A stretch of DNA of 64,000 bases from Pedobacter sp. (GCA_050253415.1 JBFWJC010000002.1:128001-192000); one strand, 5' to 3'; shown: positions 32,902 to 54,291, counted from the first letter of the stretch. The notes: generated from the sequence alone by a model not told the origin. A program made the numbers and translations.

Positions 32902-34380
32902 TTAGCTGCTTTTGGTGGGTGCTTTTGGGCCTTTTTTGGCTGCTGGCAAGTGGATCCTGGCGGTGTGTTCCCCGGCGGCGTTCCTCGGGAACGGGTAGGT
33001 TATGAGCGCGTAGCTGCTGTATAGGCTGACCTTGGTTATGGCGACGGACAGGACTTTGCGCTGCTCCGTTTCGCTGAGCAGGTCGAACTCTTCCCGGGTG
33101 ATGGACAGGGCATCCCAGTCGGGTTGATCCGGTCGGGTGGCTTCGATCTTGCGCCGACGCTCGCGCAGTGCGCCGATGGATGCTTCAATGTCCTGCATTT
33201 TTGCCCGGGCGTCTTCCATGCGCAGGATCCCGTCTGCGATGGCAGCGACCAGGTTATTCTTGCGCTGTTGTTCCTGGTGTTCTTCGCGGTCGATGGCTGC
33301 GAGCTGCTCTGAGGTGGTGTCCTGGCTCTGGGAGGCATGCCACCATGTTTTAAGTTTATCGGTGCTGCTCAGCGTACCGAAAAGGTTGGTGAGCACGCGC
33401 TCGTTGAGGGTGTGCTGTGGGATCATTCTGGACCGGTCGCATGCTCCTGCCGTGTTTTTGGAGCGGCAGCCATAGTAATCGATGCGCGTGCCGTCGTTGC
33501 GGGTGCGACTGTTGCGCCAGGTCTTGACGGTGAGATCGCAATAGCCGCAGCGCAGCAGGTCCAGGTTGGACAAGAGGGCCGCGGCTTCGCGTTTGACGCC
33601 GTTGGTCTTGCGGGTGCGTCGACTGGATCGGATGCGATCGGCTTGCTCGGCGTCCATGACGGGAGTCCAGGACCCTGCGACGATGTCGCCTGTCTCCGGG
33701 TCTTTACGCAGCGCTTGATAAAAGAGCAGTCTATCGTCGGATATGATGCGGCGGATGGAGATCTCCGCACGGCCGAGTTGTTCGGCGATGGCTTTGGCAC
33801 TGTTGGTTTCGGCCAGTTGCCAGATATGTTGACATTCGGCGAGTTGGTCGGTGTCAATCTCTACTTCGCCGGTGTTGCGATCGTAGCGGTATGGGGGTGG
33901 CGCTTTTCCGCCAAGCCATTTACCGGCGCGCAGTGCTTCGCGGCGGCCTTCTGCCATGCGGGCCTGCAGCACCTTCATTTCGACGGAGGAAAAACCGCCC
34001 TCCATCAGCAGGAGCATCCAGTCGCTGTGCTGCTTGGGGTCGAGGCTGCGTGATGGTGTTGCCAGTTTGACGCCGTGTTCGGCGCAGAGATTGAGCCAGC
34101 TGAGATAGTCGGCGAGGGTGTCGTCGCGGCTCAGGCGTGATAGTTCGATGACCAGGATCATGCCTATCTTGCCGGCACGTACGTCAGACTCAAGGCGTGC
34201 GCGTTCGCGCAGATCTTCGACCTTACCCTTGGCAGCACTGGCATGGCCGTCGTCATAGACTTCGACCTGCCATCCCTGCGATGAGGCGTAGGCCGGCAGC
34301 TGCTCGCGTTGGACGGTGAGCCGGTGGGATGGTTTGTTTTTGTCTTCGCGGGATTTGCGTATGTAGACTGCTGCGATCAT
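32902..34380 (-). CDS. Large serine recombinase (phage integrase)
   Basis: YIRKS catalytic Ser, ELSRLSR, GKWLGG..PPPY recombinase domain, LRCGYC...YYGC Zn ribbon, coiled coil. Confidence 0.92.
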   Translation of the reverse strand: MIAAVYIRKSREDKNKPSHRLTVQREQLPAYASSQGWQVEVYDDGHASAAKGKVEDLRERARLESDVRAGKIGMILVIELSRLSRDDTLADYLSWLNLCAEHGVKLATPSRSLDPKQHSDWMLLLMEGGFSSVEMKVLQARMAEGRREALRAGKWLGGKAPPPYRYDRNTGEVEIDTDQLAECQHIWQLAETNSAKAIAEQLGRAEISIRRIISDDRLLFYQALRKDPETGDIVAGSWTPVMDAEQADRIRSSRRTRKTNGVKREAAALLSNLDLLRCGYCDLTVKTWRNSRTRNDGTRIDYYGCRSKNTAGACDRSRMIPQHTLNERVLTNLFGTLSSTDKLKTWWHASQSQDTTSEQLAAIDREEHQEQQRKNNLVAAIADGILRMEDARAKMQDIEASIGALRERRRKIEATRPDQPDWDALSITREEFDLLSETEQRKVLSVAITKVSLYSSYALITYPFPRNAAGEHTARIHLPAAKKGPKAPTKSS

Positions 34381-40313: not shown

Positions 40314-40748
40314 ATGGCGAGTTTTCAGGAGGTTGCAAAAGTTGATACGGTGCGCGGTCGGGTTTCCTGGCTGCCGCCGGACGTGGTGGCCGAGTTGTCG
40401 GACCGGTTTTTCGATGCGCAAACCTGTACGGACTGGTTCCTTGCTCGCTGTTATCCGCAGGGGCCAGCATGTCCTCGCTGCGGGTCGGCGATCACCGGAG
40501 AGCGTGCTATCGACCGGTGGCGATCGCTGCAGCGCCTGACCTGCACGAGTTGCCAACGCAAAATCAAAGCGACCACCGGGACGCTGCTGCAGGAGGCGCA
40601 CCTCGATCCGCGCCAGCTGTTTGTGTTGCTGTCCATGCTCGGTCTCGGTGCTGATCCTGCTGCTGTCGCCCGTGTGATCGGTGTGACTGCGGCCACGGTT
40701 TTGGCATGGCGCGATAAAGTTGTCGCCCTGGCGGAGGTCGGCCTGTGA
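40314..40748 (+). CDS. IS1595-type Zn-ribbon + HTH protein without a DDE domain
   Basis: YPQGPACPRCGS...CTSCQRKIKATTGTLL, then VARVIGVTAATVLAWR. Confidence 0.7.
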   Translation: MASFQEVAKVDTVRGRVSWLPPDVVAELSDRFFDAQTCTDWFLARCYPQGPACPRCGSAITGERAIDRWRSLQRLTCTSCQRKIKATTGTLLQEAHLDPRQLFVLLSMLGLGADPAAVARVIGVTAATVLAWRDKVVALAEVGL

Positions 40749-42451
40749 GCGATACGCCCGACAAAGTTATTGACCTGGCCGCGCAAGTCGAGGCCAGGTT
40801 GCGACAAGAGGCCGCCGAGCTCGCCGCGGCAGAGGCGGAGCAAGTCGATCAAGACTCCACCGCCGGCGGTCCCGACGATCCGCGATTTGTCATGCAGTGC
40901 CTGGCCAACAACGAGCGTGGCGACGGGATTCTGTTCACCGCCCTGCAGCGTGGCCAGTTTGTCTACAACAAGACAAACGCTCTCTGGTATAGCTGGGCCG
41001 GTCATCACTGGGAAGTCGACAAGCTCAACCTGGCCACCACCGGCGTTGAATCCGTCGCGCTCAAGTATCTCGATCAGGCGGCCATGGTGCGGGCCGAACT
41101 CGATGAGTTGCGCAATGAGCTCGGCGCTCTGGAGACCCAAGCCGAAACCTGCCGCGCCGCCAAAGATCAGGCTGGTGCAGATGCCGCAACTGGTAAAGCC
41201 AAACGGCTCGCCAACCAGGTTGACGCGGCCGACCGAAAACTCAAAGGCCTTAACAAACGGGTCGAGCGCCTGCGCACCGTGCGCGGCGCATCCAACTGCC
41301 TCACCTGGGCCCACTGCGTCGAGCGGCCACTCGCCATCGTCGGCGATGAGATCGACAAAAAGCCCATGCTGCTCGCATGCAAAAACGGCGTCATCGACCT
41401 CGAGACAGGTCGCCTTCACCCAGGCAATCCATCCGACTACCTGGTGCGCGCCATCCCCGTCGAATATTACGGTATCGAACACGTCAACGAAGACTGGGAG
41501 AGGTTCCAGCGCGACATCCACCAGGACGACGAAGACTTTATCGGATTTGTGCGCCGTTACTTTGGCTACAGCATCACCGGCCTGACCAAAGAGCAGCACC
41601 TCGCCTGCTTTATCGGCGAAGGCGCCAACGGCAAAGGGACTATGTTCGAGACCCTCCACGAAGTCCTTGGAGAGCTCGCCTGGTCCATCGACCCAGAGAT
41701 GATCCTCGAGCAAAAAAACGCCAAAAGCTCCGCAGGCCCATCACCGGATATCGTCTCCCTATATGGCCGCCGCCTTGTCATCGCCTCCGAGACAGACCCA
41801 AACCGCCGCATCAGCGGAGCCAAAGTCAAACGCCTCACAGGATCCGACACACTTACCGGACGCGCCCCGCACGACAAGTACGAAATCAACTTTATCCCGA
41901 CCCATACCCTTGCCGCCATAACCAACCACGCGCCCAGGGGATTAGCCGCCGACTTTGCCCTTTTCCGGCGCCTGCTCTACCTCAACTACCCGCTGCGCTA
42001 CGTCGCAGACCCAGAACTCGAAGCCCGCAGCGACCCGCAAAACGCCGGCATCTATCGCCAACGCGACCCAGATCTGCCAGCCAAGCTGCTCGCCAATAAA
42101 CCCGGCATCCTCGCCTGGCTGGTTCGCGGATGCCTCGAATGGCAACGCGACGGACTCAAGCCACCGGAACAACTCCGCGCCGCCGCCGAAGAGATCCGCC
42201 GCAACGAAGACCACCTCGCCAGATTTATCGACGACAACTGCGAGCGCGTGGATGCAGACCGGCGCATCATGTTCAAAGCCCTGTACGCCAACTTTGACCA
42301 ATGGTTCGCCGACAACGTCGATGAAGACAAACGCTACCGCCCAGGCAAAAAAGCCATCGGCGATCAGCTGCGCCGCAAAGGCTACCGCGTCGAAAACAGC
42401 GGCGGGCAGGTCTACGTCTACGGCCTCACCATCGAAGGATGCTACGCATGA
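40745..42451 (+). CDS. P4/D5-family SF3 helicase (phage/plasmid primase C-terminal type)
   Basis: LACKNGVIDL, GEGANGKGT Walker A, GRRLVIASE, VKRLTGSD, TNHAP. Confidence 0.9.
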   Translation: MSDTPDKVIDLAAQVEARLRQEAAELAAAEAEQVDQDSTAGGPDDPRFVMQCLANNERGDGILFTALQRGQFVYNKTNALWYSWAGHHWEVDKLNLATTGVESVALKYLDQAAMVRAELDELRNELGALETQAETCRAAKDQAGADAATGKAKRLANQVDAADRKLKGLNKRVERLRTVRGASNCLTWAHCVERPLAIVGDEIDKKPMLLACKNGVIDLETGRLHPGNPSDYLVRAIPVEYYGIEHVNEDWERFQRDIHQDDEDFIGFVRRYFGYSITGLTKEQHLACFIGEGANGKGTMFETLHEVLGELAWSIDPEMILEQKNAKSSAGPSPDIVSLYGRRLVIASETDPNRRISGAKVKRLTGSDTLTGRAPHDKYEINFIPTHTLAAITNHAPRGLAADFALFRRLLYLNYPLRYVADPELEARSDPQNAGIYRQRDPDLPAKLLANKPGILAWLVRGCLEWQRDGLKPPEQLRAAAEEIRRNEDHLARFIDDNCERVDADRRIMFKALYANFDQWFADNVDEDKRYRPGKKAIGDQLRRKGYRVENSGGQVYVYGLTIEGCYA

Positions 42452-42496
42452 TGACCGTTTTCGCGCTGGACAGGTCCGAACAGGGGGCAAGGGGCC

Positions 42497-42798
42497 ATGA
42501 TCATATGATTATCGAAAAGACGTCAAATAATCATCATCATGGTTGTAACTATCCGGAAACACACAGGAATGATGCCGAATATGATCATATGATGATAATC
42601 CACAGAACTAGCTCTTCGCGTGCGCGTGCGCGCGCGTTAAGTATAAGCACTCCGTTATAGTCTGATTATTTTTTTATATTTCAAAGTTACTAGGAAAATA
42701 ATCATATCGTCATAATCGACCAAAAAAGAAAAGAAAAACAAACACTTAAAACCATGATGATGATTTTGAAGGAAAAAACACGATAATCATCATCATGG
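42497..42798. other. Probable phage replication origin
   Basis: AT-rich non-coding stretch between helicase and primase with repeated ATCATCATCATGG / TGATCATATGAT motifs in both orientations. Confidence 0.6.
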
Positions 42799-44250
42799 AT
42801 GGATAAAAAGATGACCGTCCTCGATCTCGCCCAAAACCGCATATCCGGACTCAAAAAGAAAACCGCCAAAGAATGGGCCGGGCCTTGCCCTGTTTGCGGA
42901 GGTACCGACCGGTTCCTTGTTTGGACCCACCGCGACGCCTGGCACTGCCGTGGCTGCGACAAAAGCGGCGACGCTATCGAGTTTTTGCGCATGGTCGATG
43001 GACTGTCCTGCCCCGACGCCCACGAAGCCCTTGGCAAGCCATGCGACTCGTCCAGCTGCGGTGCCCGTGACAAATGTCGCCTCGGTGATGGCAAAACCGG
43101 TGCCACTCGCCGCGATCCGCTGCGTGTGACACCCTCTGTCAAACCCGAGCGCACCGACGACTGGACCCCGTCCACCGCCACCGACCCCGCCGCACAGTGG
43201 GCCGAAAAAGCCGAAGCCCTCACCACCTGGGCCCATGAGCAACTACTCGCCAACGCCGACCAGCTTGCTTTCCTCGCCGCGCGCGGTCTGCCCATCGAAG
43301 CCGTCAAACAATTCCGCCTCGGCTGGGTGCCCAAAGACCTCTACCGCGAACGTGGCGCCTGGGGCCTGTCCACCGACGAGATCAGCGAGCGCACCGGAAA
43401 GCCCAAAAAACTGTGGATACCCCAAGGCATCCTGATCCCCTTTACCGCCGACGCCCAGCTACACCGCATCCGTATCCGCCGCCACAAAGTCGAAGGAGAC
43501 CAGCCCCGTTATTACTGGCTGCCCGGCAGCGGCAACGACGTCGTGCTCATCAACCCCACGGCCCGCGCCTTTGTCGTCGTCGAATCCGACCTCGACGGGC
43601 TCGCCGTGGTGCATGCCGCCAGCGACCTGGTCGGCAGCGTACCCCTTGGCACCTGCAGCGCAAAACCCAAAGAGCACGCCAACGAGATCCTAAGCCGCGC
43701 CCTCAGCATCCTCGTCGCCCTCGATTTTGACAGCCCCGACGCCAAAGGGCAGCGCCCGGGCTCAAAAGCCTGGCCATGGTGGCGCGAGCACTTCCCACGC
43801 GCCGATCGCTGGCCCGTCCCAGCCGGTAAAGACCCCGGCGACTACGTCAAAGACCACGGCGGCGATCTGCGCGCCTGGGTCGAAGCCGGCCTGCGCAAAT
43901 TCTGCCCGGCCCTCACCATCCAACCGCCACCGACCGCCACAAACCATGTGGAAAAACCGGAAGAGGCCGCGGCCGATCACCTGACCGACGATGAGCCAGT
44001 GACCCTTCCGACCCATCACAAAGGCATCAGCGCCGGCGGTCATGACTACATCATCGCACACCAGGCCGACCATGCCCCCATGCTGATGGACGCCTACCCC
44101 GGCGTTCCGGTTTTTACCCTGGCCGAGATCGAGCAGCTTAAAGGGATGACAAAACAACAGGCGGAAATAGTTTTGTTGGCCAAGAAGGCATTAGGCGCCG
44201 ACACCGAAGTGCTCGAGACACGGCCATTAAAAAAGACGGAACCTCAATAA
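42799..44250 (+). CDS. Primase (Zn-binding domain + Toprim)
   Basis: GPCPVCGGTDRF..WHCRGC, VVVESDLD, VALDFD, GKDPGD. Confidence 0.85.
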   Translation: MDKKMTVLDLAQNRISGLKKKTAKEWAGPCPVCGGTDRFLVWTHRDAWHCRGCDKSGDAIEFLRMVDGLSCPDAHEALGKPCDSSSCGARDKCRLGDGKTGATRRDPLRVTPSVKPERTDDWTPSTATDPAAQWAEKAEALTTWAHEQLLANADQLAFLAARGLPIEAVKQFRLGWVPKDLYRERGAWGLSTDEISERTGKPKKLWIPQGILIPFTADAQLHRIRIRRHKVEGDQPRYYWLPGSGNDVVLINPTARAFVVVESDLDGLAVVHAASDLVGSVPLGTCSAKPKEHANEILSRALSILVALDFDSPDAKGQRPGSKAWPWWREHFPRADRWPVPAGKDPGDYVKDHGGDLRAWVEAGLRKFCPALTIQPPPTATNHVEKPEEAAADHLTDDEPVTLPTHHKGISAGGHDYIIAHQADHAPMLMDAYPGVPVFTLAEIEQLKGMTKQQAEIVLLAKKALGADTEVLETRPLKKTEPQ

Positions 44251-44312: not shown

Positions 44313-44699
44313 ATGAGGATGGACGAACAACAAAACAGCAAAGTCCAGGTGGAAGTAGGGCGCATGTCCCTGGCCACCCTGGCAGGAGGGGCAGCCGTCG
44401 AGAAATTCGACGCCGAGCTCGAACGCGTACTGCAAAACATCGCCGACATCAATACCACTGGCGGAGACCGGAGTATCACACTTAAAGTCACGCTTAAACC
44501 GGACGCCGAAAGATCCTTCTGCCGGGTGAGCGTCCAGGTTAGCAGCCGCCTGCAGCCTGAAGAACCCTTCGGCACTCAGATGTTCCTCGGTCGCGAAGGA
44601 GGCCGCACCGTCGCTTTTGAGCACAACCCCGAACAGCTAAAACTTGGTTACCATCCCCACGAAGTCAAACCACAAGCCATTCGCCTCGGAGGCAAATAA
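44313..44699 (+). CDS. Conserved phage protein
   Basis: LAGGAAVEKFDAELERVLQNIADINT...RSITLKVTLKPD; AAGGAG RBS. Confidence 0.75.
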   Translation: MRMDEQQNSKVQVEVGRMSLATLAGGAAVEKFDAELERVLQNIADINTTGGDRSITLKVTLKPDAERSFCRVSVQVSSRLQPEEPFGTQMFLGREGGRTVAFEHNPEQLKLGYHPHEVKPQAIRLGGK

Positions 44700-44700
44700 C

Positions 44701-45414
44701 ATGTTGGAAAAATTTCTTAACCGACTCATAGAGCTTAAACGACCCGAAACCGTCGAGATCGATGGACGTCAATACACCACCGCCAAACTGTACCCCGTCG
44801 AAGATCCGACCCCGGCCGCGATCACGGTGCATACCTTGGCCAGTCTTGCCACCTACATCAAAGATCATCCCGCCGATCTTCCTCCGGTCGATCAGCTGAT
44901 CCTGTCCGTCGACTCGCCGGTGCGCGTTGATCTGCTCAGCCATGGTGCCGGATACTTCAACCAGCGCCGCCACTGCGCCGCCGCAACCGTGTTGCCCGAT
45001 GAATTCCCCTTCGGTTGCTACATGCCACAGGAAGAATTCGTCATCGCCATGATGACCCGCTTCGTCCGCGACAAAATGGTCGACGATATCATGGCCGTGG
45101 CCGGAAATCTGAGCGCCGACACCAATCTGGCCATCGAAGACGACGGCGTTTCCCAACGTCTCAACGTCAAGGCCGGTATCTCACGCAAAAGCGAAGTCGT
45201 CGTCGAAAACCCCGTCACTCTGCGCCCCTACCGCACATTCATCGAAGTCGAACAGCCCGAATGCCAGCTGGTGCTGCGCTTCAAAAAAGACCGCGAAGGT
45301 GTCCCCCAGTGCGCCCTGTTTGAAGCCGATGGAGGCCTGTGGAAGAACAAAGCCGCCGACAATATCGCAACCTGGCTGCGGCAAAACGTACCCGGAGTAA
45401 GCGTCCTGGCCTGA
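44701..45414 (+). CDS. Conserved phage protein (partner of the upstream ORF)
   Basis: DDGVSQ, NPVTLRPYRTF.EVEQP, ALFEADGG.WK; GGAGG RBS. Confidence 0.8.
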   Translation: MLEKFLNRLIELKRPETVEIDGRQYTTAKLYPVEDPTPAAITVHTLASLATYIKDHPADLPPVDQLILSVDSPVRVDLLSHGAGYFNQRRHCAAATVLPDEFPFGCYMPQEEFVIAMMTRFVRDKMVDDIMAVAGNLSADTNLAIEDDGVSQRLNVKAGISRKSEVVVENPVTLRPYRTFIEVEQPECQLVLRFKKDREGVPQCALFEADGGLWKNKAADNIATWLRQNVPGVSVLA

Positions 45415-45468
45415 CATTGCCCGATGCCCGGGGTCACTACGGCCCCGGGTAAAATCACGGAGAAAACC

Positions 45469-45939
45469 ATGAGACCACTCACCCGCACCGAATGCCAAGG
45501 CCCGTTTGTCCTGTCGCTGATCTGCGCCCTTGCCAATGGCCTGCAGCAAGCCGAACCCGTCAAGCACAGCGCCCGCGTAAACCGCCTGGCCAAAGTCGAA
45601 GAGACCGCCATGCGCGCCATCGACTTTTATCCGGATGCCGAACTGACGCCCCAGGTGCAGGAGTTGGCCGCCGAGTTTTTCGACCGGGTGGAAAAAATAT
45701 TCGTAGAGACTGTTGCGCCGCCTTTGGTCATGGATGAAAAACGCCAGAGCCAGATCGCCGCCCTGATCAGCACCAGCGTCGATGATTGCCGCAGCACCAT
45801 CGCCCTGATGGACGATGCAAGTTTACTGCAGGCTGTGCTGGACCATATGGATAAAAACAACATCGACGGAAAAACCCGCCGACAGGTCATCGCGCGAAGG
45901 ATCCGGGCGATCAATAAGCAGGCCAGCCAATGTGCATGA
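45469..45939 (+). CDS. Hypothetical phage protein
   Basis: GGAG RBS; phage-like codon usage. Confidence 0.65.
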   Translation: MRPLTRTECQGPFVLSLICALANGLQQAEPVKHSARVNRLAKVEETAMRAIDFYPDAELTPQVQELAAEFFDRVEKIFVETVAPPLVMDEKRQSQIAALISTSVDDCRSTIALMDDASLLQAVLDHMDKNNIDGKTRRQVIARRIRAINKQASQCA

Positions 45940-46058
45940 ACCGCCAGCCACTAAGCCCGAAAGTTTGCCCCATCTGCGGCGGATATCTCGCCACCATCGG
46001 CAACAAGACCCGCGAGTGCGAGCAATGCGGATACCGCCGCAAGGAGAAAACCAAATGA
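45936..46058 (+). CDS. Small Zn-ribbon protein (40 aa)
   Basis: MNRQPLSPKVCPICGG...ECEQCGY; ATGA overlaps at both ends. Confidence 0.6.
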   Translation: MNRQPLSPKVCPICGGYLATIGNKTRECEQCGYRRKEKTK

Positions 46059-46639
46059 CCAACCCAGCCGCCACCCCGCAACCCATGTCCCGCCAAGGTC
46101 GTCAAAACGTCCTGCCCGAAGTCATCAAAGACCTCGAAGCCCGCACCGCCGTCGGCATTACCAAATACGGCACCCAACTGCAAACCCACAACGGCCGTGA
46201 CGCCCTGATCGATGCCTACCAGGAATCCCTCGACCAGGTGCAATATCTCAAACAGGTACTCATGGAGCGCGACAACCCCGCACCCGAATACAACTGGCCC
46301 GAGACCATCTTTGTCCGGCAAAACACCACCGCCCAGCAACTCGACCATATCCTCAGCGAGGTCGACGAAATCAACCAGATCGGGCCCCATATCGATCCAG
46401 ACGGTAGCCCCAACGACCCGATCCTGCGACACCTGCACATGAAGGTCGCCGACCTGCACCACAGCATCGAGACCTACTGGCGCAAACTAGAGATTGAGCG
46501 CGGGCCCGAATACGTCTCCGCCGTGTTCCAAGCCGTCGAGGATGAAAGCAGGGTGCGCGGATATTACGACCTGGATCCCATCGAAGAACCGCTGCCATGC
46601 CTTGCCGGACCGTTTGGGTTGATGCCCCAGGGAGTTTGA
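46055..46639 (+). CDS. Hypothetical phage protein
   Basis: AAGGAG RBS; R..VGITKYGT.L...NGRDALIDAYQESLD motif. Confidence 0.7.
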   Translation: MTNPAATPQPMSRQGRQNVLPEVIKDLEARTAVGITKYGTQLQTHNGRDALIDAYQESLDQVQYLKQVLMERDNPAPEYNWPETIFVRQNTTAQQLDHILSEVDEINQIGPHIDPDGSPNDPILRHLHMKVADLHHSIETYWRKLEIERGPEYVSAVFQAVEDESRVRGYYDLDPIEEPLPCLAGPFGLMPQGV

Positions 46640-46644
46640 CAGGT

Positions 46645-46833
46645 ATGGCCACAGATCCGGCCCGCGCCAAAAAGCGCACCCTGGCCCAGTGGCGCCACGA
46701 GCAACGCCAATCCTGCCGAGCCAGACCATGCTCCGCCGTCGCCGAAATGCTCGCAACCGGCAAGACCGCCGGCCAGATCCGCTGCGTGATCTGCGTGTGG
46801 GAAGGCCAGATCAAAAAGATAGCGCCGCAGTAA
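46645..46833 (+). CDS. Small hypothetical protein
   Basis: GGAG RBS; last gene before the cassette array. Confidence 0.5.
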   Translation: MATDPARAKKRTLAQWRHEQRQSCRARPCSAVAEMLATGKTAGQIRCVICVWEGQIKKIAPQ

Positions 46834-46863
46834 AAGCGATTTGACTGTGAGATAGCTGCGGCA

Positions 46864-46888
46864 TCCCGCCGCCGTGGTGGCGGCGGGA
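46864..46888 (+). terminator. GC-rich hairpin immediately before the cassette array
   Basis: TCCCGCCGCC-gtggt-GGCGGCGGGA, weak U-tract. Confidence 0.45.
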
Positions 46889-46893
46889 AGATT

Positions 46894-46995
46894 TTGAAAC
46901 GCCAAGGTAAGACGCGCCGCACTTCCGACGGCGCACCACTAAATTTAACGCGAACCTGCCAGCTATTGCGCGTCGTCTTGACCGGCTGGTTGTGC
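46894..46995 (-). other. attC-like site 1
   Basis: + strand: TTGAAAC-GCCAA-GGTAAGAC ... GTCTTGACC-GGCTG-GTTGTGC; one extra base in the right inner box. Confidence 0.8.
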
Positions 46996-47013
46996 CCGCC
47001 TACGGAGGAGTGA

Positions 47014-47253
47014 ATGAAGATCTGGTTTGTAGGAAAGCCGATTGTTGTTGATGGAGAAGAACTTGGCTGGATGCCGGAAGGGGCTTTTGAGACAGAAGAG
47101 GAGGCGGCGAAGGTTGCCACAGATGCCGAATTTATCGTACTGGCCGAGGTTGGAGGAAGATTTCCAGAAAAAGCCACAGATGCCGAAAAGCTGTATTACC
47201 CGAAACTGGAGCGGTGGGAGGATAGCGCCCTTTACAAGATGCGGAATCAGTAA
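47014..47253 (+). CDS. Cassette 1 hypothetical protein
   Basis: GGAGGAG RBS; flanked by GTTGTGC / GAACAAC. Confidence 0.75.
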   Translation: MKIWFVGKPIVVDGEELGWMPEGAFETEEEAAKVATDAEFIVLAEVGGRFPEKATDAEKLYYPKLERWEDSALYKMRNQ

Positions 47254-47255
47254 GG

Positions 47256-47330
47256 GAACAACGCCTGCCGATCAGCGGTGAACGAAGGAGCGCAGCGGAT
47301 GAGTTATCCGCTGCATGGGCCTTGTTAAAC
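47256..47330 (-). other. attC-like site 2
   Basis: GAACAAC...GATCAGCGG...GCGCAGC...CCGCTGCATG...GTTAAAC. Confidence 0.78.
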
Positions 47331-47350
47331 AGCCATAAGGAAATGGTCAA

Positions 47351-47737
47351 ATGACACGATTTAAATTTAGAGCATGGGACTCCGTGAACAAGGAAATGCT
47401 TGACGCAAATACTGGATGTTTTTTCTACGAAGAAGACAACGGTTTCCATTGTGGATACCTGGCTGGTGTCAACGCTCCTGCTGATGTTGCGGGGGATTGG
47501 GTTGAATGCCCTGTGATGCAATGGACCGGGATCCGTGACAAAAACGGCATCGAGATTTACGAGGGTGACATTGTAAACCTTGACACTCTTTGCAAATACG
47601 AAGGCGGTGGGACTATTTGGAGAATTAAGCCGCACAAGGTTGTTTTTGAACGCCAGAGATGGCTCCCGGATAGACTGTCGGAGTCTGAAATTATTGGCAA
47701 CATCTACGAACACCCTGAGCTGGTCGGGGCAGTTTAA
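47351..47737 (+). CDS. Cassette 2: YopX-family protein
   Basis: KFRAWD, MQWTGIRDKNG.EIYEGDIV, EIIGNIYEHPEL. Confidence 0.88.
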   Translation: MTRFKFRAWDSVNKEMLDANTGCFFYEEDNGFHCGYLAGVNAPADVAGDWVECPVMQWTGIRDKNGIEIYEGDIVNLDTLCKYEGGGTIWRIKPHKVVFERQRWLPDRLSESEIIGNIYEHPELVGAV

Positions 47738-47865
47738 CGCTTGAGATCACGGGATTGCGGAGGAAACTATGACAATTGATATGGATATGCCATTTGGCGA
47801 GTTTGCACGGAAACACCTTGATACCGGCGCGGGTAGCAATTCCGCTGTGGATCGACTGGTTAAAT
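47732..47865 (-). other. attC-like site 3 (contains RBS and start of cassette 3 gene)
   Basis: GTTTAAC-GCTTGA-GATCACGGGATTGC ... GCAATTCCGCTGTGGATC-GACTG-GTTAAAT. Confidence 0.8.
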
Positions 47866-48164
47866 CGCCGCCGGTAGTCTGCCTGTGCGGATCTACTCGT
47901 TTTTTCGATGCGTTCAGAGACGCGAATCGCGCCGAAACGATGGAGGGAAAGATCGTGCTTGCTCCCGGAGTGTTTGGCCATTGCGGCGATCCATTGACTG
48001 ACGACGATAAGTTGCGGCTAGATATTTTGCACTATTGGAAAATTGACCTGGCCGACGAGGTGCTTGTGCTCAATGTTGGCGGGTACATTGGCAGCAGCAC
48101 CCAAAACGAAATCGAGTATGCCAAGCGAACCGGGAAACCTGTGCGCTTTCTTGAGGCGATTTAA
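47769..48164 (+). CDS. Cassette 3: nucleoside 2-deoxyribosyltransferase-like fold protein
   Basis: VCLCGSTRF, KIDLADEVLVLNVGGYIGSST..EIEYAK..GKPV. Confidence 0.7.
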   Translation: MTIDMDMPFGEFARKHLDTGAGSNSAVDRLVKSPPVVCLCGSTRFFDAFRDANRAETMEGKIVLAPGVFGHCGDPLTDDDKLRLDILHYWKIDLADEVLVLNVGGYIGSSTQNEIEYAKRTGKPVRFLEAI

Positions 48165-48218
48165 CGACTTAGTATGAGCGCGCCTGCGTAGCAGGTCCGC
48201 TCGATGCGCTGGTTCTAA
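48159..48218 (-). other. attC-like site 4
   Basis: ATTTAAC...TATGAGCG-CGCCTGCGTAGCAGGTC-CGCTCGATG-CGCTG-GTTCTAA. Confidence 0.82.
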
Positions 48219-48252
48219 AGGGTTTTCGCGCTCGGCGAAGCCGATAGGGGGT

Positions 48253-49110
48253 TTGATTGTGGGTTTATTTGAGACAACAGAAGAAGAACTGTACCAGATC
48301 GCCATAAGTCGGCCGCTTGAAGAGAAGATTGATCAGGCAATCTCTCTTATCCAGGCGACTGAAGGCCAAGCGTTGAAATTATCTGATGATGGCTTTTACG
48401 TCTGCTTTTCTGGGGGGAAAGACAGCATTGTCATGGCTCGGTTGTTTGAGATGGCCGGTGTTAAATTTGGCCTACATTACAACAATGTGACAATCGATCC
48501 TCCCGAACTGGTTCGGTTTATCAAGGAAGAATATCCCCATGCGGAATGGCATTCTGTCGGCAAGCACCTGATCAACTACATGGCCGAAGACAAGGTTTGC
48601 GGTCCCCCAACGCGGCTAATTCGCTGGTGTTGCGAGATTTACAAAGAGCAAGGTGGGGTTGATAAATTCCGGGCAATAGGGGTGAGGGCCGAAGAGTCCG
48701 CCAGGCGGAAGGGGTTGTGGAAGCAGATTACCACTGACAGGAAAACGAAGATGCCGATTTTATGCCCCATTTTGTATTGGACACATGCCGACATCTGGGC
48801 ATTCATCAAGCAGCATGACATGCCGTATTGCTGCTTGTATGACGAGGGTTTTGACCGCCTGGGCTGTGTCGGGTGCCCAATGGGAGGACCAAAAGGGCAA
48901 GCCCGCGATTTCGCCCGCTGGCCGAAATATGAAGCGATGTGGAAGCGTGGATTCAGGAAGTATTTTGACAAGTACAAGGGCGTTCCGAAGCGCAACGGGG
49001 AGCCTCGGGCAATCGAAAAATTCCCAACCGTAGACGACCTGTGGAATTGGTGGATAAGCGGCAAAGCCTATGAAGGCGACAATCCGGATTGCCAACTGTG
49101 GCTGTGGTAG
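48253..49110 (+). CDS. Cassette 4: PAPS-reductase-family (PP-loop) protein
   Basis: CFSGGKDS, RWCCEIYKE, GVRAEES..R, PILYWT..DIW, RLGCVGCP. Confidence 0.88.
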   Translation: MIVGLFETTEEELYQIAISRPLEEKIDQAISLIQATEGQALKLSDDGFYVCFSGGKDSIVMARLFEMAGVKFGLHYNNVTIDPPELVRFIKEEYPHAEWHSVGKHLINYMAEDKVCGPPTRLIRWCCEIYKEQGGVDKFRAIGVRAEESARRKGLWKQITTDRKTKMPILCPILYWTHADIWAFIKQHDMPYCCLYDEGFDRLGCVGCPMGGPKGQARDFARWPKYEAMWKRGFRKYFDKYKGVPKRNGEPRAIEKFPTVDDLWNWWISGKAYEGDNPDCQLWLW

Positions 49111-49128
49111 GTTTTGCGCGAAAAGACT

Positions 49129-49230
49129 TTAGAACGATCATGGTCAGCGACGGTGTGAGAACGGACGCGCCGCACCGACCTAAACGAGAATCGCCGCAGG
49201 TCTTCCGTTCGCTGGACCTGCTGGTTAGAT
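49129..49230 (-). other. attC-like site 5
   Basis: TTAGAAC-GATCAT-GGTCAGCGACGG ... CCGTTCGCTGGACC-TGCTG-GTTAGAT; two unpaired bases (T, G) on the right arm. Confidence 0.85.
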
Positions 49231-49250
49231 TTCTTTCTATAGAGGAACTT

Positions 49251-49451
49251 ATGAAACCTAAATGCCCACATTGCGATCACCAGTTTGATGACGACCAAGT
49301 TTGGCACGGAAGCAACAACTGCGAATTCCCAACCGAGCGCGACGGTGATACGGGGGAATTCGACTGCCCGATCTGCGGGAAGCCGCTGTATGTTCGTATT
49401 GAATTCACCCCCGCATGGTACTTCACCGACGATAACGGCATTGAAATCTAA
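49251..49451 (+). CDS. Cassette 5: small Zn-finger protein
   Basis: MKPKCPHC...DCPICG; GAGG RBS. Confidence 0.75.
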   Translation: MKPKCPHCDHQFDDDQVWHGSNNCEFPTERDGDTGEFDCPICGKPLYVRIEFTPAWYFTDDNGIEI

Positions 49452-49531
49452 TAACAAAGATCAGCGGCGAAGGAGGCCGTAGCCTATGAAACTGAAGCGT
49501 TTATTTCGTCCGCTGTATTGGCTGGTTATGC
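49446..49531 (-). other. attC-like site 6 (left box ATCTAAT is degenerate; contains RBS and start of cassette 6 gene)
   Basis: ATCTAAT-AACAAA-GATCAGCGGCGAA ... TTCGTCCGCTGTATT-GGCTG-GTTATGC. Confidence 0.78.
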
Positions 49532-49695
49532 GCTGCACTGGAACTATTTATTTGGAACCTGGCCTTAGAGTAACCACTTCTGGCTGGGTGATTATTTCTG
49601 ACGGGAAATCGAAAGATGCTTTGCCTATCAGCCTCGTCTCGCAAGAGATTGTGGATAAGGTGGAAGCCAGTTTGGCAAGTTGGGGTTACACATAA
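49486..49695 (+). CDS. Cassette 6 hypothetical protein
   Basis: AGGAGG RBS inside the attC; stop TAA lies in the ACATAAC box. Confidence 0.65.
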   Translation: MKLKRLFRPLYWLVMRCTGTIYLEPGLRVTTSGWVIISDGKSKDALPISLVSQEIVDKVEASLASWGYT

Positions 49696-49744
49696 CGACT
49701 AGCTGACCGAGAGCGCAGCGATTCGGTCGAGCGGCTTGTTGTAA
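49690..49744 (-). other. attC-like site 7 (55 bp)
   Basis: ACATAAC-GACTA-GCTGACCG-AGAGCGCAGCGATT-CGGTCGAGC-GGCTT-GTTGTAA. Confidence 0.88.
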
Positions 49745-49756
49745 TGCGAGGGACCT

Positions 49757-50020
49757 ATGAAAAAGAACCGATTGGCCGCAAAGGAGTGGCGCGAAGAAGA
49801 TCAACGGAAAAAGAAGCAAGCTGAAGACATTGAGTACGCCACAAGCAAAACATACGACGCAGAAAAGCGCATCCGTGGCTTGAGTGCAACAATCGAGTAT
49901 GCCGGGCATCCAGAAATCGCAGAAAAGGTAGAGTCTGCGAGGTTGCTATTAGCAGAATCTTACGAAAATCTGCAAGCAATACAACGACTAGCTGACCGAG
50001 AGCGCAGCGATTCGGTCTAG
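49757..50020 (+). CDS. Cassette 7 hypothetical coiled-coil protein
   Basis: GAGG RBS; reads into attC8. Confidence 0.7.
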   Translation: MKKNRLAAKEWREEDQRKKKQAEDIEYATSKTYDAEKRIRGLSATIEYAGHPEIAEKVESARLLLAESYENLQAIQRLADRERSDSV

Positions 50021-50033
50021 CGGCTTGTTAGAC
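49979..50033 (-). other. attC-like site 8 (55 bp, near-identical to site 7)
   Basis: ATACAAC-GACTA-GCTGACCG-AGAGCGCAGCGATT-CGGTCTAGC-GGCTT-GTTAGAC. Confidence 0.88.
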
Positions 50034-50048
50034 ATTAAATAAAGGAGC

Positions 50049-50243
50049 ATGAAAATGTTGATTACGTTTAAAGCAAGATGCCCTGAGTGCGGAGTGGATG
50101 GAAAACACACAGTGGAAATAGGACAAGACCTGCACCCGAAGAAGGTACTTCTTTGCGACACGGAAGTTGGAGGATGCGACTGTTATTTCGCAGCATTTAT
50201 AAACATAAGGGCCGAAGCTGAAACGGCAAAGATAGATGTCTAA
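50049..50243 (+). CDS. Cassette 8: small Cys-rich protein
   Basis: AAGGAG RBS; CPEC...LCD..GGC; stop lies in the GTCTAAC box. Confidence 0.75.
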   Translation: MKMLITFKARCPECGVDGKHTVEIGQDLHPKKVLLCDTEVGGCDCYFAAFINIRAEAETAKIDV

Positions 50244-50351
50244 CAGAGGTAACAATGGAAAATTTTCCACTTATCACCACGATTAAAGCCAAAAAGTGGA
50301 AAACAGCCGTCAACAAATGACAACAGCCAAATGACAAAGGACACCCCCTGA

Positions 50352-51101
50352 ATGTTCCAGCGCGCCCAACAACTCATCGACGTTGCCAGCCAGCACCAAA
50401 AAGCCGAACTGGTCACACTGCACAACGCCGTGCTCGAACGCATGGAAGCCTACAAGAAGGCCAGCACCGCCGCCAACAAGCGCGACTGGGCCGCCGCCAA
50501 AAAAGGCCTGCAGGAGTGCATCGACCAACTCTTGCCGGTGTACTTCCCCGAGCTGTCCGCCGCCGACCCGGAGGTGTTCGACACCCAAAAAGCCGCCCTC
50601 GCCTGGCTGCACAACCACTTCGGCAAACCGTACCCGTCCGCCGGCAAGTTCAGCCAGGATATCCGTGACGGGCTGTGCCTGCAGCAGCAGAACAAAACCA
50701 TCCTGCGCAAGGATCTCAAAAAATACGCCGAGGTCATCGGCCATGACAAGCAGGCCGCCGCCGCCTCGGCCAGCCAAGCCGAAAAACGCGAAAAGCTCGA
50801 AATCGAAAAGCTGGAGCTGGATGTCGAAAAACGCCGGATGGAAAACCGCAAGGAGGACAAAAACTGGATCGCCCGCGACACCGTCTTCGAACGCGAAGGC
50901 GCCCTTGTCGGTCAGATCATGGGCGAAGCCCGCCATCACCTCGGCCGCGCCGTACCCGCCGTGATCCATGCCGCCAAAGGCGACCCCGAGCGCACCCCGG
51001 AGATCAAAAAAATTATCGAAGAAGCCCTGTTCGACGCCTTCCGCTCCCTGTATGAATCCGGCGAAGTCGACATGACCTTTTTGCAAGAAGAAGAGGACTG
51101 A
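50352..51101 (+). CDS. Probable terminase small subunit
   Basis: Coupled (TGATG) to the large terminase; central coiled coil EKREKLEIEKLELDVEKRRME as in Nu1-like proteins. Confidence 0.6.
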   Translation: MFQRAQQLIDVASQHQKAELVTLHNAVLERMEAYKKASTAANKRDWAAAKKGLQECIDQLLPVYFPELSAADPEVFDTQKAALAWLHNHFGKPYPSAGKFSQDIRDGLCLQQQNKTILRKDLKKYAEVIGHDKQAAAASASQAEKREKLEIEKLELDVEKRRMENRKEDKNWIARDTVFEREGALVGQIMGEARHHLGRAVPAVIHAAKGDPERTPEIKKIIEEALFDAFRSLYESGEVDMTFLQEEED

Positions 51102-53077
51102 TGCAAACCGCCCTGGCCGCCGACATCTTTGCCCAGCCCCTGCCCGAGTTTTTCCCCGAGCAGCTGCGCCACGCCTGCAGCGGTAAACGCATCCGCTACA
51201 CGCTGCCGCGCTCCGTGCGCGAACGCATGCAAATACCCGAAGACATCACCGTCAGCCAATGGGCCGAAAAATACCGCCGCGTCACCGCCATCGACGCCGA
51301 GCCAGGCCGCTGGCGCATCGACCGCGTCCCCCACACCAAAAAACTCATGGACATGATCAGCCTGCCGTGGGTCAAGGAATTCTGGCTGTGCATGGTCGAG
51401 CGCGCCGCCAAAACCCAGATAGTGCTCAACGCCGCCTGCCGTCAGATCGACCGCGGCATAGACTCCGGCAACGTATTTTGGCTCATGCCAAGCGAAGCCG
51501 ACGCCAAAAAAGCCCTCAGCGAACGCATCATACCCGTACTCAAAGAGAGCCCCCGCATGGCTCGGCTGCTGTCGCGCTACGCCGACGACACCACCAGCAC
51601 CAAGATCCGCTTTAAACACGGACCGCGCCTGTTTCCCGCCTGGTCCAACAGCCCCGGCTCCATCGCCTCGTTTTACGGCAAGCTCAACATCGGCGATGAG
51701 ATCGACAAATACGGCGACCGCTCCGGCGGCGAAACCGACCCCATTACCCTGCTCAAAAAACGCGGCCGCGACAGCGACGAATCCAAATTCCTGTTTGCCA
51801 GCACCCCCGCCGGTAAATTTATATACAAAGGCACCATGGCCTGCCAGCAAGTCTGGACCTACAAAAACCGCTGCCCCCATTGCGGTGAATACATCCTGAT
51901 GGACGCCGATCATTTCATGCTACCCGAAGGCGCCACCCAGGAGACCATCAAACACGGCGAGCACCCCGTCACCTACGCCTGCAACGACTGCGGCGTAGAA
52001 TGGGACGAAACCGACCGCAAAACCGCCTACCAAAACGGCGACTGGTTCGCCATCAAAGGCGCCGATGTCGAGCGGCCCACCACCATCGGAGCCTGGTTGC
52101 CGGCCTTCCCGCTGCCCAACATCCCCATGGCCGAGATCGGCGCCGCCATCGCCCGCGCCAACACCGGAGATCTCGCCGGTAAGATGGACCTCGCCCACGG
52201 CTATAAAGCCGTCGACTACGAAGCCGAAAACAAAGACCGGCAAGAAGACGCCATCCTGCTGCTGCGCGACGACCGCCCGGCAGGCATGATCCCCACCGAA
52301 GCCAACGGCCTCGAAATATCCATCGACACCCAGGATAACGGCTTCTGGTATCGCATCCGCGCCTGGCGTTACGGCCTCGATCTCAAAAGCTGGCTTGTCA
52401 AAGCCGGATATGTGCCCAGTGCCAACGCCGCCGACTTTGCCGCCCTCGATGATCTCATCGCGGCCGAATACCCCGACACCAACGGCGAGCCCCACCGCAT
52501 TATGGCCGGCATCATCGACAGCGCCGGGCATCGCACCAGCGAAGTCTACGCCTGGTGCCGCCGCACCGGAATCATACCAGCCAAAGGTGCCCAAGGCCGC
52601 AAGACCCAGCCCGTCACCGTCAGCCGCATCGACCGTTTCCCCGGTGACAACAAACCGATCCCCGGCGGCCTCAACCTCTACCATATCGACACGCATTTTC
52701 ACAAAGACCAACTCGCCAACAAACTGCAGATCGACCCCTCCGATCCCGGCGCCCTGGTGCTGCACAGCGGCTATAGCCTTGACCAGCTCACAGCCCTGCA
52801 CCGCGATCCAAACGGTAAACAAGCCCACAACCTGGAGGAATACGCCCGCCAGATGTGCGTCGAATACCGCGACGAGCGCGGCCTGTGGCAATGCCCCGAC
52901 GGCAAAGCCAATCACCTGTGGGATTGTGAAAACAACGGCCTCGCCCTGGTCATGTACCTGGGTTGGCAGCACAAAGGCAGCGTAAAAAAGAAGCCCGCCA
53001 CCAACGGACTCAAACCCAAAGACACCGCACCAGCCGCCACCAGCCGCGACCTTCCGGCATGGTATCGCAACCGCTAA
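51101..53077 (+). CDS. Terminase large subunit, lambda GpA family
   Basis: TVSQWAEKYR, GDEIDKY, FASTP, CPHCG/CNDCG, IDTQ, IDSAG, NHLWDC. Confidence 0.9.
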   Translation: MQTALAADIFAQPLPEFFPEQLRHACSGKRIRYTLPRSVRERMQIPEDITVSQWAEKYRRVTAIDAEPGRWRIDRVPHTKKLMDMISLPWVKEFWLCMVERAAKTQIVLNAACRQIDRGIDSGNVFWLMPSEADAKKALSERIIPVLKESPRMARLLSRYADDTTSTKIRFKHGPRLFPAWSNSPGSIASFYGKLNIGDEIDKYGDRSGGETDPITLLKKRGRDSDESKFLFASTPAGKFIYKGTMACQQVWTYKNRCPHCGEYILMDADHFMLPEGATQETIKHGEHPVTYACNDCGVEWDETDRKTAYQNGDWFAIKGADVERPTTIGAWLPAFPLPNIPMAEIGAAIARANTGDLAGKMDLAHGYKAVDYEAENKDRQEDAILLLRDDRPAGMIPTEANGLEISIDTQDNGFWYRIRAWRYGLDLKSWLVKAGYVPSANAADFAALDDLIAAEYPDTNGEPHRIMAGIIDSAGHRTSEVYAWCRRTGIIPAKGAQGRKTQPVTVSRIDRFPGDNKPIPGGLNLYHIDTHFHKDQLANKLQIDPSDPGALVLHSGYSLDQLTALHRDPNGKQAHNLEEYARQMCVEYRDERGLWQCPDGKANHLWDCENNGLALVMYLGWQHKGSVKKKPATNGLKPKDTAPAATSRDLPAWYRNR

Positions 53078-53087
53078 GGAGACCACC

Positions 53088-53306
53088 ATGACACCACCGC
53101 AAATATACCGCCGCAAAGACATGCTCACCGTCGCCCAATTCGCCAAAGTCATCGGCATGAGCCGTAGTTTTGCCTATCAACTGGTCGAGCGCGGACCGCA
53201 AGAAGGCGGCGTTCTGGCGTTTCGTTATGGCAAGACAAAAGGGCTTAGGGTGCCGGCGGAAGAGGTGACGCGATATCAGCAGGAGAGAAAGGTTGTTGAG
53301 GTATAA
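53088..53306 (+). CDS. Small winged-HTH (excisionase/HTH_17-like) protein
   Basis: MLTVAQFAKVIGMSRSFAYQLVERG...LRVPAEEV; AAGGAG RBS. Confidence 0.8.
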   Translation: MTPPQIYRRKDMLTVAQFAKVIGMSRSFAYQLVERGPQEGGVLAFRYGKTKGLRVPAEEVTRYQQERKVVEV

Positions 53307-53360
53307 CGGATTTGAGGTGTGCGGCGAGCGTAGCGAGTCCACACCAGCGAAGGGTTATGA
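53301..53360 (-). other. attC-like site 9 (solo cassette)
   Basis: GTATAAC-GGATTT-GAGGTGTG...GAGCGTAGCGA...CACACCAGC-GAAGG-GTTATGA. Confidence 0.75.
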
Positions 53361-54187
53361 TGCCCATGCAGAAACAGCGAATCATACGGGTTTTTCCGAG
53401 ACGGACAGCGGCCACGCCAGATGATGATCTGGTGAGGATCGCCACAACGCCCGGCCTCTTTGACGAAGCCGATGAAGTGCATGTGTCGGTGACGTTTACT
53501 TGGGATTTACCCCTTGTCGAAAAACTGGCGAAAGCCTGGGAGCCGGTGGCTCCTGTGACGATCGGAGGCCCGGCGACGGGAGAAGCTGGGGGGGATTTTA
53601 CCCCTGGCTTGTACGTCAAAAAAGGCTACGTACTCACCTCTCGCGGCTGCCCGAACAACTGCTGGTTTTGTTCCGTGCCAAAACGTGAAGGCCCGTTGCG
53701 GGAATTGCCGATCACCGAAGGCTGGAACGTCCTCGATGACAACTTGTTGGCATGCTCTGACGATCATGTCCGGAGAGTGTTCGAGATGCTGTATGGCCAG
53801 AAGAAAAACGGACGGATTCAATTTACTGGCGGACTGGAAGCTGCCCGCCTCAAACCCTGGCACGTTGAAGCCCTGCGGGGATTGAGGCCGAAACAGATGT
53901 TCTTTGCGTACGACACGCCCGACGATCTGGAACCGCTGCAGGACGCTGGTAGGATGCTGTTGGATGCTGGCTTTACGATCACAAGTCACGCCCTTCGGGC
54001 CTATGTGTTGTGCGGCTGGCCGAAGGATAGTTTTGAGGCGGCAGGCCGCAGGATGCAACAAACGATAGACGCCGGTTTCATGCCGATGGCGATGCTTTAC
54101 CGTGGCGTAGCCGGCAAACGTGATACGGAGTGGATGCGCTGGCAACGGGAATGGGCGAGACCAGCCATAATTGCCAAGGCATCATAA
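53357..54187 (+). CDS. Cassette 9: radical SAM protein
   Basis: TSRGCPNNCWFC (CxxxCxxC), LDDNLLA; flanked by GTTATGA / TCATAAC. Confidence 0.85.
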   Translation: MMPMQKQRIIRVFPRRTAATPDDDLVRIATTPGLFDEADEVHVSVTFTWDLPLVEKLAKAWEPVAPVTIGGPATGEAGGDFTPGLYVKKGYVLTSRGCPNNCWFCSVPKREGPLRELPITEGWNVLDDNLLACSDDHVRRVFEMLYGQKKNGRIQFTGGLEAARLKPWHVEALRGLRPKQMFFAYDTPDDLEPLQDAGRMLLDAGFTITSHALRAYVLCGWPKDSFEAAGRRMQQTIDAGFMPMAMLYRGVAGKRDTEWMRWQREWARPAIIAKAS

Positions 54188-54262
54188 CATCCTTTAACCA
54201 GCCCACAATGACAGTTACCCATATAATTATTTTAGGCAAAACCGCAAAAACCTAAAAAAGTT

Positions 54263-54291
54263 GTCCACCACGTCCACCACGTCCACCACGT
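54263..54291 (+). repeat. (GTCCACCAC)x3 upstream of the head operon
   Basis: Three perfect 9-bp direct repeats about 40 bp before the gpW-like start. Confidence 0.85.

Follow-up and report, generated by a model that had tools for sequence, protein, structure and literature searches.

Integrons are known mainly as bacterial stores of resistance and defence genes, and reports of them in phages are few. A survey of 10,705 phage genomes yielded three complete integrons, one In0 and 17 clusters of attC sites lacking integron integrases (CALINs), and the accessible part of that study reports that phage attC sites recombine with IntI1 and that DNA methyltransferase cassettes are present (Qi et al. 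2023, PMC9892861). In the usage of IntegronFinder, a CALIN is two or more attC sites with no integron integrase nearby (PMC7923331, PMC9892861). Here we describe a gene-cassette array in a prophage of Pedobacter sp. (GCA_050253415.1, JBFWJC010000002.1:128001-192000; "the window" is this full 64-kb stretch, from whose first letter positions are counted). The genome holding the window, G000, is a metagenome bin of 18 contigs and 4.1 Mb, and the prophage lies on its contig C2. Positions 46894-50310 very probably constitute an integron platform without an integrase in a temperate phage, with an attI-like site on the right and eight cassettes to its left, belonging to a phage lineage that keeps the platform. 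An earlier note on this stretch had described eight small genes, each after a palindrome, reverse-complementary 7-mers bracketing each gene, poorer matches between the two ends of any single palindrome, and an array inside a prophage with no integron integrase in view. It had taken these for the footprint of an IntI-type recombinase acting in trans; as the accessible part of Qi et al. (PMC9892861) makes clear, phage integrons and CALINs had already been described.

Eight plus-strand open reading frames (ORFs) occupy 47014-50243, and an imperfect palindrome of 55-134 bp, running from ...AAC to GTT..., precedes each of them (Table 1). The outer R boxes ...AAC/GTT... are present in all eight sites and in a ninth site further right. 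The flanking genes are phage-type (serine integrase, repressor, D5-type helicase/primase, gpA-type large terminase, portal, protease, decoration and major head/capsid proteins), and the array block is compositionally foreign among them, with a GC content of 0.50-0.51 and positive GC skew against 0.56-0.62 and negative skew in the flanks. A search with the integron integrase model TIGR02249 gives zero matches in the window, the matches on contig C2 falling outside it. With at least two attC sites and no integron integrase nearby, the array comes under the definition of a CALIN.

The palindromes were identified as attC sites with covariance models, as minimum free energy (MFE) folding has too little power to decide the matter. 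Model R1 draws on 14 of the 15 attC sites beside the host intI (alignment A1; the omitted host site 8 nearly duplicates site 1), with the structure supplied by hand (AAC/GTT pairs and an inner box with bulges), and the window was searched on both strands with filters off. R1 recovers all eight palindromes at full length, all on the minus strand, with scores from 54.9 to 16.3 bits (E 3e-11 to 0.16) and E<0.001 for six of the eight. Besides these, R1 at E<=10 gives two matches in the 64 kb, namely the ninth site (53301-53360, minus strand) and a partial plus-strand match at 7576-7635 (E 3.3). Since all R1 matches in the array lie on the minus strand, this strand of the window is, on sequence grounds, the attC top strand, which leaves the plus strand as the recombinogenic bottom strand. 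The array consequently reads from right to left, each cassette being a gene together with the site on its left. The extra-helical bases of the attC bottom strand canonically follow a G/T rule; an extra C is seen by eye in the 5' arm of the top strand in those sites that were so judged (sites 4, 7 and 8 and the host sites).

If cassettes are inserted singly at G/TT by an integron integrase, each site takes the outer part of its R' box from the neighbouring cassette, and the 7-mers bracketing each gene should be complementary. Counted over the four variable positions of each 7-mer in eight pairs, the cassette-bracketing 7-mers are complementary at 26/32 positions in the register of the covariance model and at 29/32 in the register of the earlier note; the two registers differ in the fifth pair, where the box of the model (TAATAAC) is 4 nt to the right of the ATCTAAT chosen in the note. 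A value of 26 is reached by 3 of the 40,320 partner permutations, and the two ends of a single site are complementary at 10/32 positions. The host integron serves as a positive control, with 52/56 complementary positions for bracketing pairs and 0-3 of 4 within each site.

An attI-like sequence that includes the junction 7-mer forms the right end of the array and is homologous to the host attI. Its palindromic 12-mer GGAAAATTTTCC has five copies in the 4.1-Mb G000, every one at the head of a cassette array: two in attI beside intI, one each to the left of the arrays at C1:336185 and C3:106995, and one at window position 50257. The phage minus strand and three chromosomal attIs form an alignment with 50 invariant columns, and local alignment against the three host attIs scores 47, 38 and 46 for the minus strand and 38, 40 and 36 for the plus strand, against a shuffle maximum of 25. 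Both orientations beat the shuffles because core and flanks are dyad-symmetric; the orientation is taken mainly from three other features, namely the strand of the attC sites, the GTT at a distance of 12 nt from the core and where intI lies in relatives. By homology and location, 50238-50310 is a putative attI, with a gap of 41 nt between its end (50310) and the next phage gene (50352). The three intI-bearing phage loci that were read (L016, L029, L067) carry another short motif at the cassette/attI junction, so that the host-like attI of the window is an exception in the phage lineage. A scan of IMG/VR with an attI 17-mer gave 16 loci (L040-L055), considered as viral contigs with the same attI and set aside as chance matches, none of them having an attC match at E<=0.01. 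In G196, a genome of the same genus, the region beside the chromosomal intI, viewed by eye, shows no likeness to the prophage array end. Palindromes, 7-mers, the prophage setting and the lack of an integrase are as the earlier note had described them, and the R1 matches in the two-strand search that it had suggested, the bracket rule and the attI-like head bear out its reading as an IntI-type cassette footprint. What changes is the direction, the attC top strand being the minus strand and the ORFs inverted, and the array carries an attI-like head.

The host supplies a candidate recombinase. An intact IntI is encoded at C1:1750302-1751246 (447.6-447.9 bits against TIGR02249, cut-off 265), the one full copy in G000, and to its right an attI and a cassette array extend to the contig end, with 15 attC sites delimited (C1:1750302-1759659 and beyond). 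The search of the host for intI proposed in the earlier note therefore finds an enzyme that may act in trans on the prophage array. Across G000, R1 gives 54 attC matches at E<=0.01 in at least 10 places on C1, C2, C3, C4, C5, C8 and C16, so that the prophage contig C2 also carries host-type attC arrays.

Several further features of the host integrons were recorded. To the left of the window, 9-18 kb from its start, is a host attC array at C2:109869-118946. Two more host attI cores, at C1:335857 (L010 ~9858) and C3:106504 (L011 ~9505), head arrays with no intI nearby and are solo attI platforms in the chromosome, with housekeeping genes as neighbours (peptidase M16, DsbA-like thioredoxin). At C2:470321-470557 (L013), a fragment with an open frame of 111 aa only matches the integron integrase model at positions 228-306 with 95.7 bits; it lies ~1 kb from two attC matches (C2:471387-473668) and looks like a decayed second integron. 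In the host array, the first cassette past attI (C1:1751431-1751933) is duplicated downstream at C1:1755534-1756031.

The platform recurs in related phages. Homologues of the 249-aa protein encoded just right of the array occur in four IMG/VR contigs at 74-78% identity. In L015 and L016, attC matches lie upstream of the homologue, all on the minus strand, and in L016 an ORF at 6023-6991, between the array and the homologue, has a TIGR02249 score of 415.8 bits, shares 47% identity with the host IntI and ends 10 nt before the homologue. The C-terminus of an L016-type intI is found at the same location in L014. A scan with the L016 IntI returned 17 loci. The order intI, 249-aa homologue, gpA-type large terminase (TerL) is seen in L019-L022, L025 and L027, and in L026 TerL comes straight after intI. 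The attC matches are opposite in strand to intI and the phage genes in 18/18 and 30/30 cases in phage loci, and opposite to intI in 16/16 in L035, L036 and L038; L037 and L039 have zero attC matches at E<=0.01. In L020, the two halves of a homologue of the 274-aa protein encoded at window 45815-46639 lie at 3635-3874 and 5402-5644, flanking a small integron (one attC, one ORF, intI); since the integron splits the homologue, the platform there is displaced by one gene to the left, relative to the window.

Bacterial genomes give the same picture. Among 233 genomes of the same order, 13, G000 counted, carry a homologue of the 249-aa protein, and six were fetched and read. Arrays lie upstream of the homologue and on the opposite strand in G196, G190 and G126, and 13/13 attC matches in the bacterial-genome prophage loci are opposite to the phage genes; G159 and G172 have zero attC matches near the homologue. 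The G190 prophage has an intI (418.1 bits) directly upstream of the homologue, which completes the order of intI, gene in the small-terminase position and TerL, and G190 has a second, chromosomal IntI elsewhere. The only IntI of G196 lies ~300 kb from its prophage. Scans of genome contigs that took the 249-aa protein or a 5-sequence alignment as query returned zero relatives, and among the loci examined there is no related phage with an empty platform. In G114 (L069, C1:1429000-1442000), two attC at 1148-1550 lie between the gene in the small-terminase position and TerL, on the strand opposite to the genes.

In a tree of IntI proteins (24 rows, two Xer proteins as outgroup, the truncated L028 dropped), a single branch can separate the nine terminase-linked IntIs from the other rows; its support is moderate (74/99; found in 76% of bootstrap trees). 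The IntI of the G190 prophage pairs with that of L016 (99/98), away from the chromosomal IntI of G190, and the IntI of the window host pairs with the chromosomal IntI of G159. The cargo consists of phage accessory genes, in the window YopX, PAPS-reductase-like, small zinc-ribbon and radical-SAM-like, to which the relatives add DNA methyltransferases; those detected in cassettes of relatives are of the C5 and N6/N4 types, and a further PAPS-reductase domain occurs there as well.

The phage cassettes also differ from those of the host in orientation. With intervals of <120 nt or >1500 nt left out, 35/35 host cassette intervals have their longest ORF on the attC top strand, against 38/47 intervals of the phage lineage with the longest ORF on the attC bottom strand (arrays of the window, L015, L016, L021, L024, L029, L036, L038, L066, L067 and L071; Fisher P 7e-15, a value that overstates independence as the intervals come from related sequences). 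In the window, it is on the bottom strand in 7/8 array intervals and in the interval of the ninth cassette, so that the window cassettes depart from the rule that the ORF lies on the attC top strand; the plus-strand family matches (YopX, PAPS-reductase-like, radical-SAM-like) back the bottom-strand ORFs, as do the methyltransferase and PAPS-reductase matches in relatives. The preference of the integrase for the bottom strand sets cassette orientation for expression from the cassette promoter Pc (PMC13108822), a logic that is inapplicable to phage cassettes with ORFs on that strand. These would be expressed from the phage side, by read-through. A promoter and terminator scan of 45800-51200 gives counts no higher than in shuffled sequence.

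A group II intron at L016 2910-4810 bears on the same point. It lies on the plus strand, starts right after an attC (RF02001 128.7 bits, RF00029, RVT_1 and GIIM), carries a reverse transcriptase/maturase ORF at 3337-4683 and runs the same way as the cassette ORFs. IIC-attC introns are described, in the accessible text, as inserting after the bottom-strand hairpin, opposite to cassette transcription (PMC7923331); the intron in L016 runs with the ORFs instead of against them because the cassettes there are inverted. In the longer attC sites (window 47732-47865 and 49449-49531; L015 6033-6165), the variable loop contains the ribosome-binding site and start codon of the next ORF.

The strongest competing explanation is that a fragment of a bacterial chromosomal integron, comprising attI and cassettes, entered the phage a single time through illegitimate recombination or imprecise excision and has no phage role. 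Vibrio phages have captured host chromosomal integron pieces (PMC9892861, accessible part), the attI-like site resembles the host attI, and the composition of the block is unlike that of the remaining phage. A single passive capture is nevertheless unlikely, given that arrays share one location in phages whose TerL proteins are only 31-53% identical, that the ORFs have the opposite orientation to those of all 35 host intervals, that the cargo is phage-type with no paralogue in the host for any of the eight array cassettes searched, and that terminase-linked IntIs can, with the moderate support given above, group apart from chromosomal ones.

Comparison among relatives, which the earlier note had proposed as a check, shows two cassettes recurring with homology that ends at the predicted boundaries. 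When window 45800-54400 was compared by blastn with 25 related loci, nucleotide matches inside cassettes were found for 2/9 cassettes only, the other seven being unmatched in the 25 loci. The PAPS-reductase cassette (window 48195-49136) matches L015 4817-5761 at 85% identity, confined to that span; the GTTCTAA/TTAGAAC brackets are common to both, and the neighbours differ on both sides. The second is the ninth cassette, a solitary attC and its gene between the terminase module and the portal gene. Model R2, made from 30 attC matches that include window site 2 but not the ninth site, scores this attC at 23.9 bits (E 2.4e-4). Its right boundary 7-mer, TCATAAC, was predicted from the attC before the search and found at 54182-54188, overlapping the stop codon, as the single plus-strand copy in the window. 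Window 53378-54188 matches L029 7158-7974 at 73.6% nucleotide identity, with the homology ending at 54188. The L029 copy is the first cassette of a main array, beside a truncated intI, and GTTATGA/TCATAAC brackets are present in both copies. About 75 nt right of this boundary, at 54263-54289, GTCCACCAC is repeated three times in tandem; the repeats could belong to a secondary integration site or be unrelated.

Table 1 Features of the prophage window in order of position (scores for attC sites are from models R1 and R2).
Feature	Position	Strand	Evidence or remark
Large serine integrase of prophage, not IntI	32902..34380	-	phrog_95 E 1.5e-60; marks prophage left part
D5-type helicase/primase and DnaG-type primase, 5' of array	40745..44250	+	PF08706, PF01807, phrog_1156
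GC-rich hairpin then TTTT run, directly left of array	46865..46887	+	read from sequence
attC site 1, last site reading from attI	46894..46995	-	R1 33.9 bits, E 6e-06, full length; R2 54.4 bits
Cassette ORF 1, 79 aa	47014..47253	+	no family match
attC site 2	47256..47330	-	R1 16.3 bits, E 0.16; R2 37.4 bits (R2 training included site 2)
Cassette ORF 2, YopX family	47351..47737	+	PF09643 E 4.9e-19; phrog_98 E 1.9e-28
attC site 3, 134 bp	47732..47865	-	R1 20.5 bits, E 0.014; variable loop holds ORF 3 start
Cassette ORF 3, 131 aa	47769..48164	+	no family match
attC site 4	48159..48218	-	R1 26.4 bits, E 4.6e-4
Cassette ORF 4, PAPS-reductase-like	48253..49110	+	PF01507 E 2.6e-22; phrog_424 E 2.9e-38
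attC site 5	49129..49230	-	R1 54.9 bits, E 3e-11; most host-like of the sites
Cassette ORF 5, 66 aa, zinc-ribbon-like	49251..49451	+	weak sub-threshold zinc-ribbon matches only
attC site 6	49449..49531	-	R1 33.4 bits, E 8e-06
Cassette ORF 6, 69 aa	49486..49695	+	no family match; start inside site 6
attC site 7, near copy of site 8	49690..49744	-	R1 26.8 bits; public-run contigs break here
Cassette ORF 7, 87 aa	49757..50020	+	no family match; overlapping 74-aa minus-strand ORF, coding strand less certain
attC site 8	49979..50033	-	R1 26.7 bits
Cassette ORF 8, 64 aa, Cys-rich	50049..50243	+	overlapping 80-aa minus-strand ORF, coding strand less certain
attI-like site	50238..50310	-	junction 7-mer GTCTAAC 50238-50244; 12-mer GGAAAATTTTCC 50257-50268; further TTTTCCAC half-repeat
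249-aa protein, small-terminase position	50352..51101	+	no Pfam/PHROG family; placed by synteny with relatives
Large terminase, gpA type	51101..53077	+	PF05876, PF20454, phrog_15
Ninth attC, solitary, between terminase module and portal gene	53301..53360	-	R1 17.2 bits, E 0.094
Ninth-cassette ORF, radical-SAM-like	53357..54188	+	phrog_9298 E 4.3e-17; PF04055 weak

The hairpin directly left of the array is possibly the terminator of the upstream phage gene and is absent from the output of a consensus terminator scan. A gpZ-like tail-completion gene at window 39600-40205 lies immediately upstream of the replication genes, an odd place far from the head genes at 51-59 kb.

An error of assembly, with a wrong cassette order or copy number at duplicated attC sites or a chimeric join of phage and integron, would also produce an unusual array. 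The source is a landfill metagenome, and Logan contigs break off at two attC sites that are nearly identical (49690-49744 and 49979-50033). Three public DNA runs of one landfill-metagenome study were consulted as contigs, one probably the source of the assembly and one showing this arrangement too, at low depth. In run X1, independent contigs span 44500-49723, 49699-50012, 49988-51294 and 51265 onward with zero differences, jointly bridging the phage/array junction, the attI/terminase junction and the repeats, and run X2 has identical pieces. As the same architecture is found in relatives from other samples, even a partial artefact is very improbable. The reading of the palindromes as terminators, REP-like repeats or phage module-boundary sequences that resemble attC and are not substrates of IntI, which could draw on their being intergenic hairpins with modest fold z-scores and on the GC-rich hairpin with its T run at the left edge, is close to refuted by a host-only attC model that finds all eight on one strand, a bracket rule specific to IntI crossover at G/TT, the attI-like head, intI beside arrays in relatives, and a terminator scan no richer than shuffled sequence.

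An integron platform that lacks its integrase, kept by a phage lineage, would work as follows. Each cassette would be inserted singly at the attI G/TT, through an integron integrase that acts on the folded form of the bottom strand, here the window plus strand. The ORFs point to attI, in the same direction as the phage genes, and the cassettes would be transcribed as part of a phage operon that continues into the terminase genes, instead of from the integron Pc. The lineage keeps the platform just upstream of the terminase genes, several members still encoding IntI there, and the window prophage presumably lost or replaced its intI. As its attI resembles that of the host, the chromosomal IntI of the host is the likely recombinase.

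Several points weigh against this interpretation. Two array sites are weak under the host-only R1 (E 0.014 and 0.16), and single-stranded folding of single sites, a check that the earlier note had suggested, gives MFE values near those of shuffled sequences (z -0.5 to -3.5; 100 mononucleotide shuffles each), too weak to decide either way. The phage attI copy is without 34 nt that carry one of two repeat units and may be a poor or dead site; moreover, the attI core is palindromic and one host attI is slightly better on the plus strand (40 vs 38), so similarity alone leaves the orientation unfixed. The longest-ORF test is crude, with 9/47 phage-lineage intervals reversed and window ORFs 7 and 8 ambiguous. 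The link between the prophage on C2 and the intI on C1 rests on binning, G000 being a metagenome bin, together with shared attC and attI types, and related genomes and contigs are kin, so that the samples are not independent. Searching G000 by tblastn with the eight array-cassette proteins finds zero paralogues, bar a weak 26% PAPS-reductase match on C5; with no paralogues in the host arrays, exchange with the host cassette pool is hypothetical. Lastly, no recombination event was observed, and the public contigs show a single arrangement with zero alternative joints in the array.

A wider proposal is that the phage lineage owns a phage-adapted integron, in which intI heads the packaging operon, phage transcription passes across the reversed ORFs and attI into intI and the terminase genes, a pool of phage accessory and DNA-modification cassettes is traded between phages, and members without intI borrow the host IntI via a copied attI; we put this forward tentatively, as something that falls a little short of probable. 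The locus matters at several levels. A platform is found at one fixed terminase-side place across related phages, in several metagenomes and at least four bacterial genomes of one order, and the same cassettes are found in other positions and other phages. This offers a defined mechanism, open to testing, behind part of the mosaic accessory region in phages and what may be a natural case of a mobile element using the host IntI via a matching attI. If the wider proposal holds, integrons would be a general shuffling device for phage accessory genes, beyond bacterial adaptive genes, and reversed cassettes (attC bottom strand, then gene) may help in understanding how cassettes arise.

Comparison with described systems places the array close to several of them. 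It resembles a sedentary chromosomal integron, that of the host included, in its attC geometry, bracket rule, homologous attI core and one gene per cassette; the host chromosomal arrays differ in having ORFs on the top strand (35/35), lower GC and other genes, and the prophage array is without an adjacent intI. Like a CALIN, it has eight attC sites and no intI in the window; unlike one, it has an attI-like head and is thus a platform missing its integrase rather than a detached array fragment. The ninth cassette, standing alone between phage genes as at a secondary site, recalls attG-type insertion outside att sites (10.1101/2022.09.11.507474, accessible part). The L016 group II intron, placed right after a bottom-strand attC hairpin, is similar to group IIC-attC introns (PMC7923331, accessible text), from which it differs in running with the cassette ORFs, its assignment being at group II level only. 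The phages of Qi et al. share with the window attC arrays, with or without intI, in phage or prophage DNA (PMC9892861). In the accessible part of that paper, their complete integrons are host fragments or a class 1 integron on P1, in typical orientation where this is discussed, whereas the window lineage has a fixed platform, grouped terminase-linked IntIs, inverted ORFs and, in a member without intI, a host-like attI. Linkage of intI to terminase, systematically inverted phage cassettes and an intI-less platform with a host-type attI are unreported in the literature searched, an incomplete set that leaves the supplementary tables of the 17 CALINs of Qi et al. outside the comparison.

In lambdoid phages, the nin region and morons are small, variable accessory genes between replication and packaging, whose shuffling is thought to be by illegitimate or homologous recombination. 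The window array is similar to these modules in gene type and position, and the boundaries of its genes are attC sites. Phage integrons and CALINs are already known as a kind; what is new here is a phage lineage whose platform has a fixed place and whose cassettes are inverted, together with a host-like attI.

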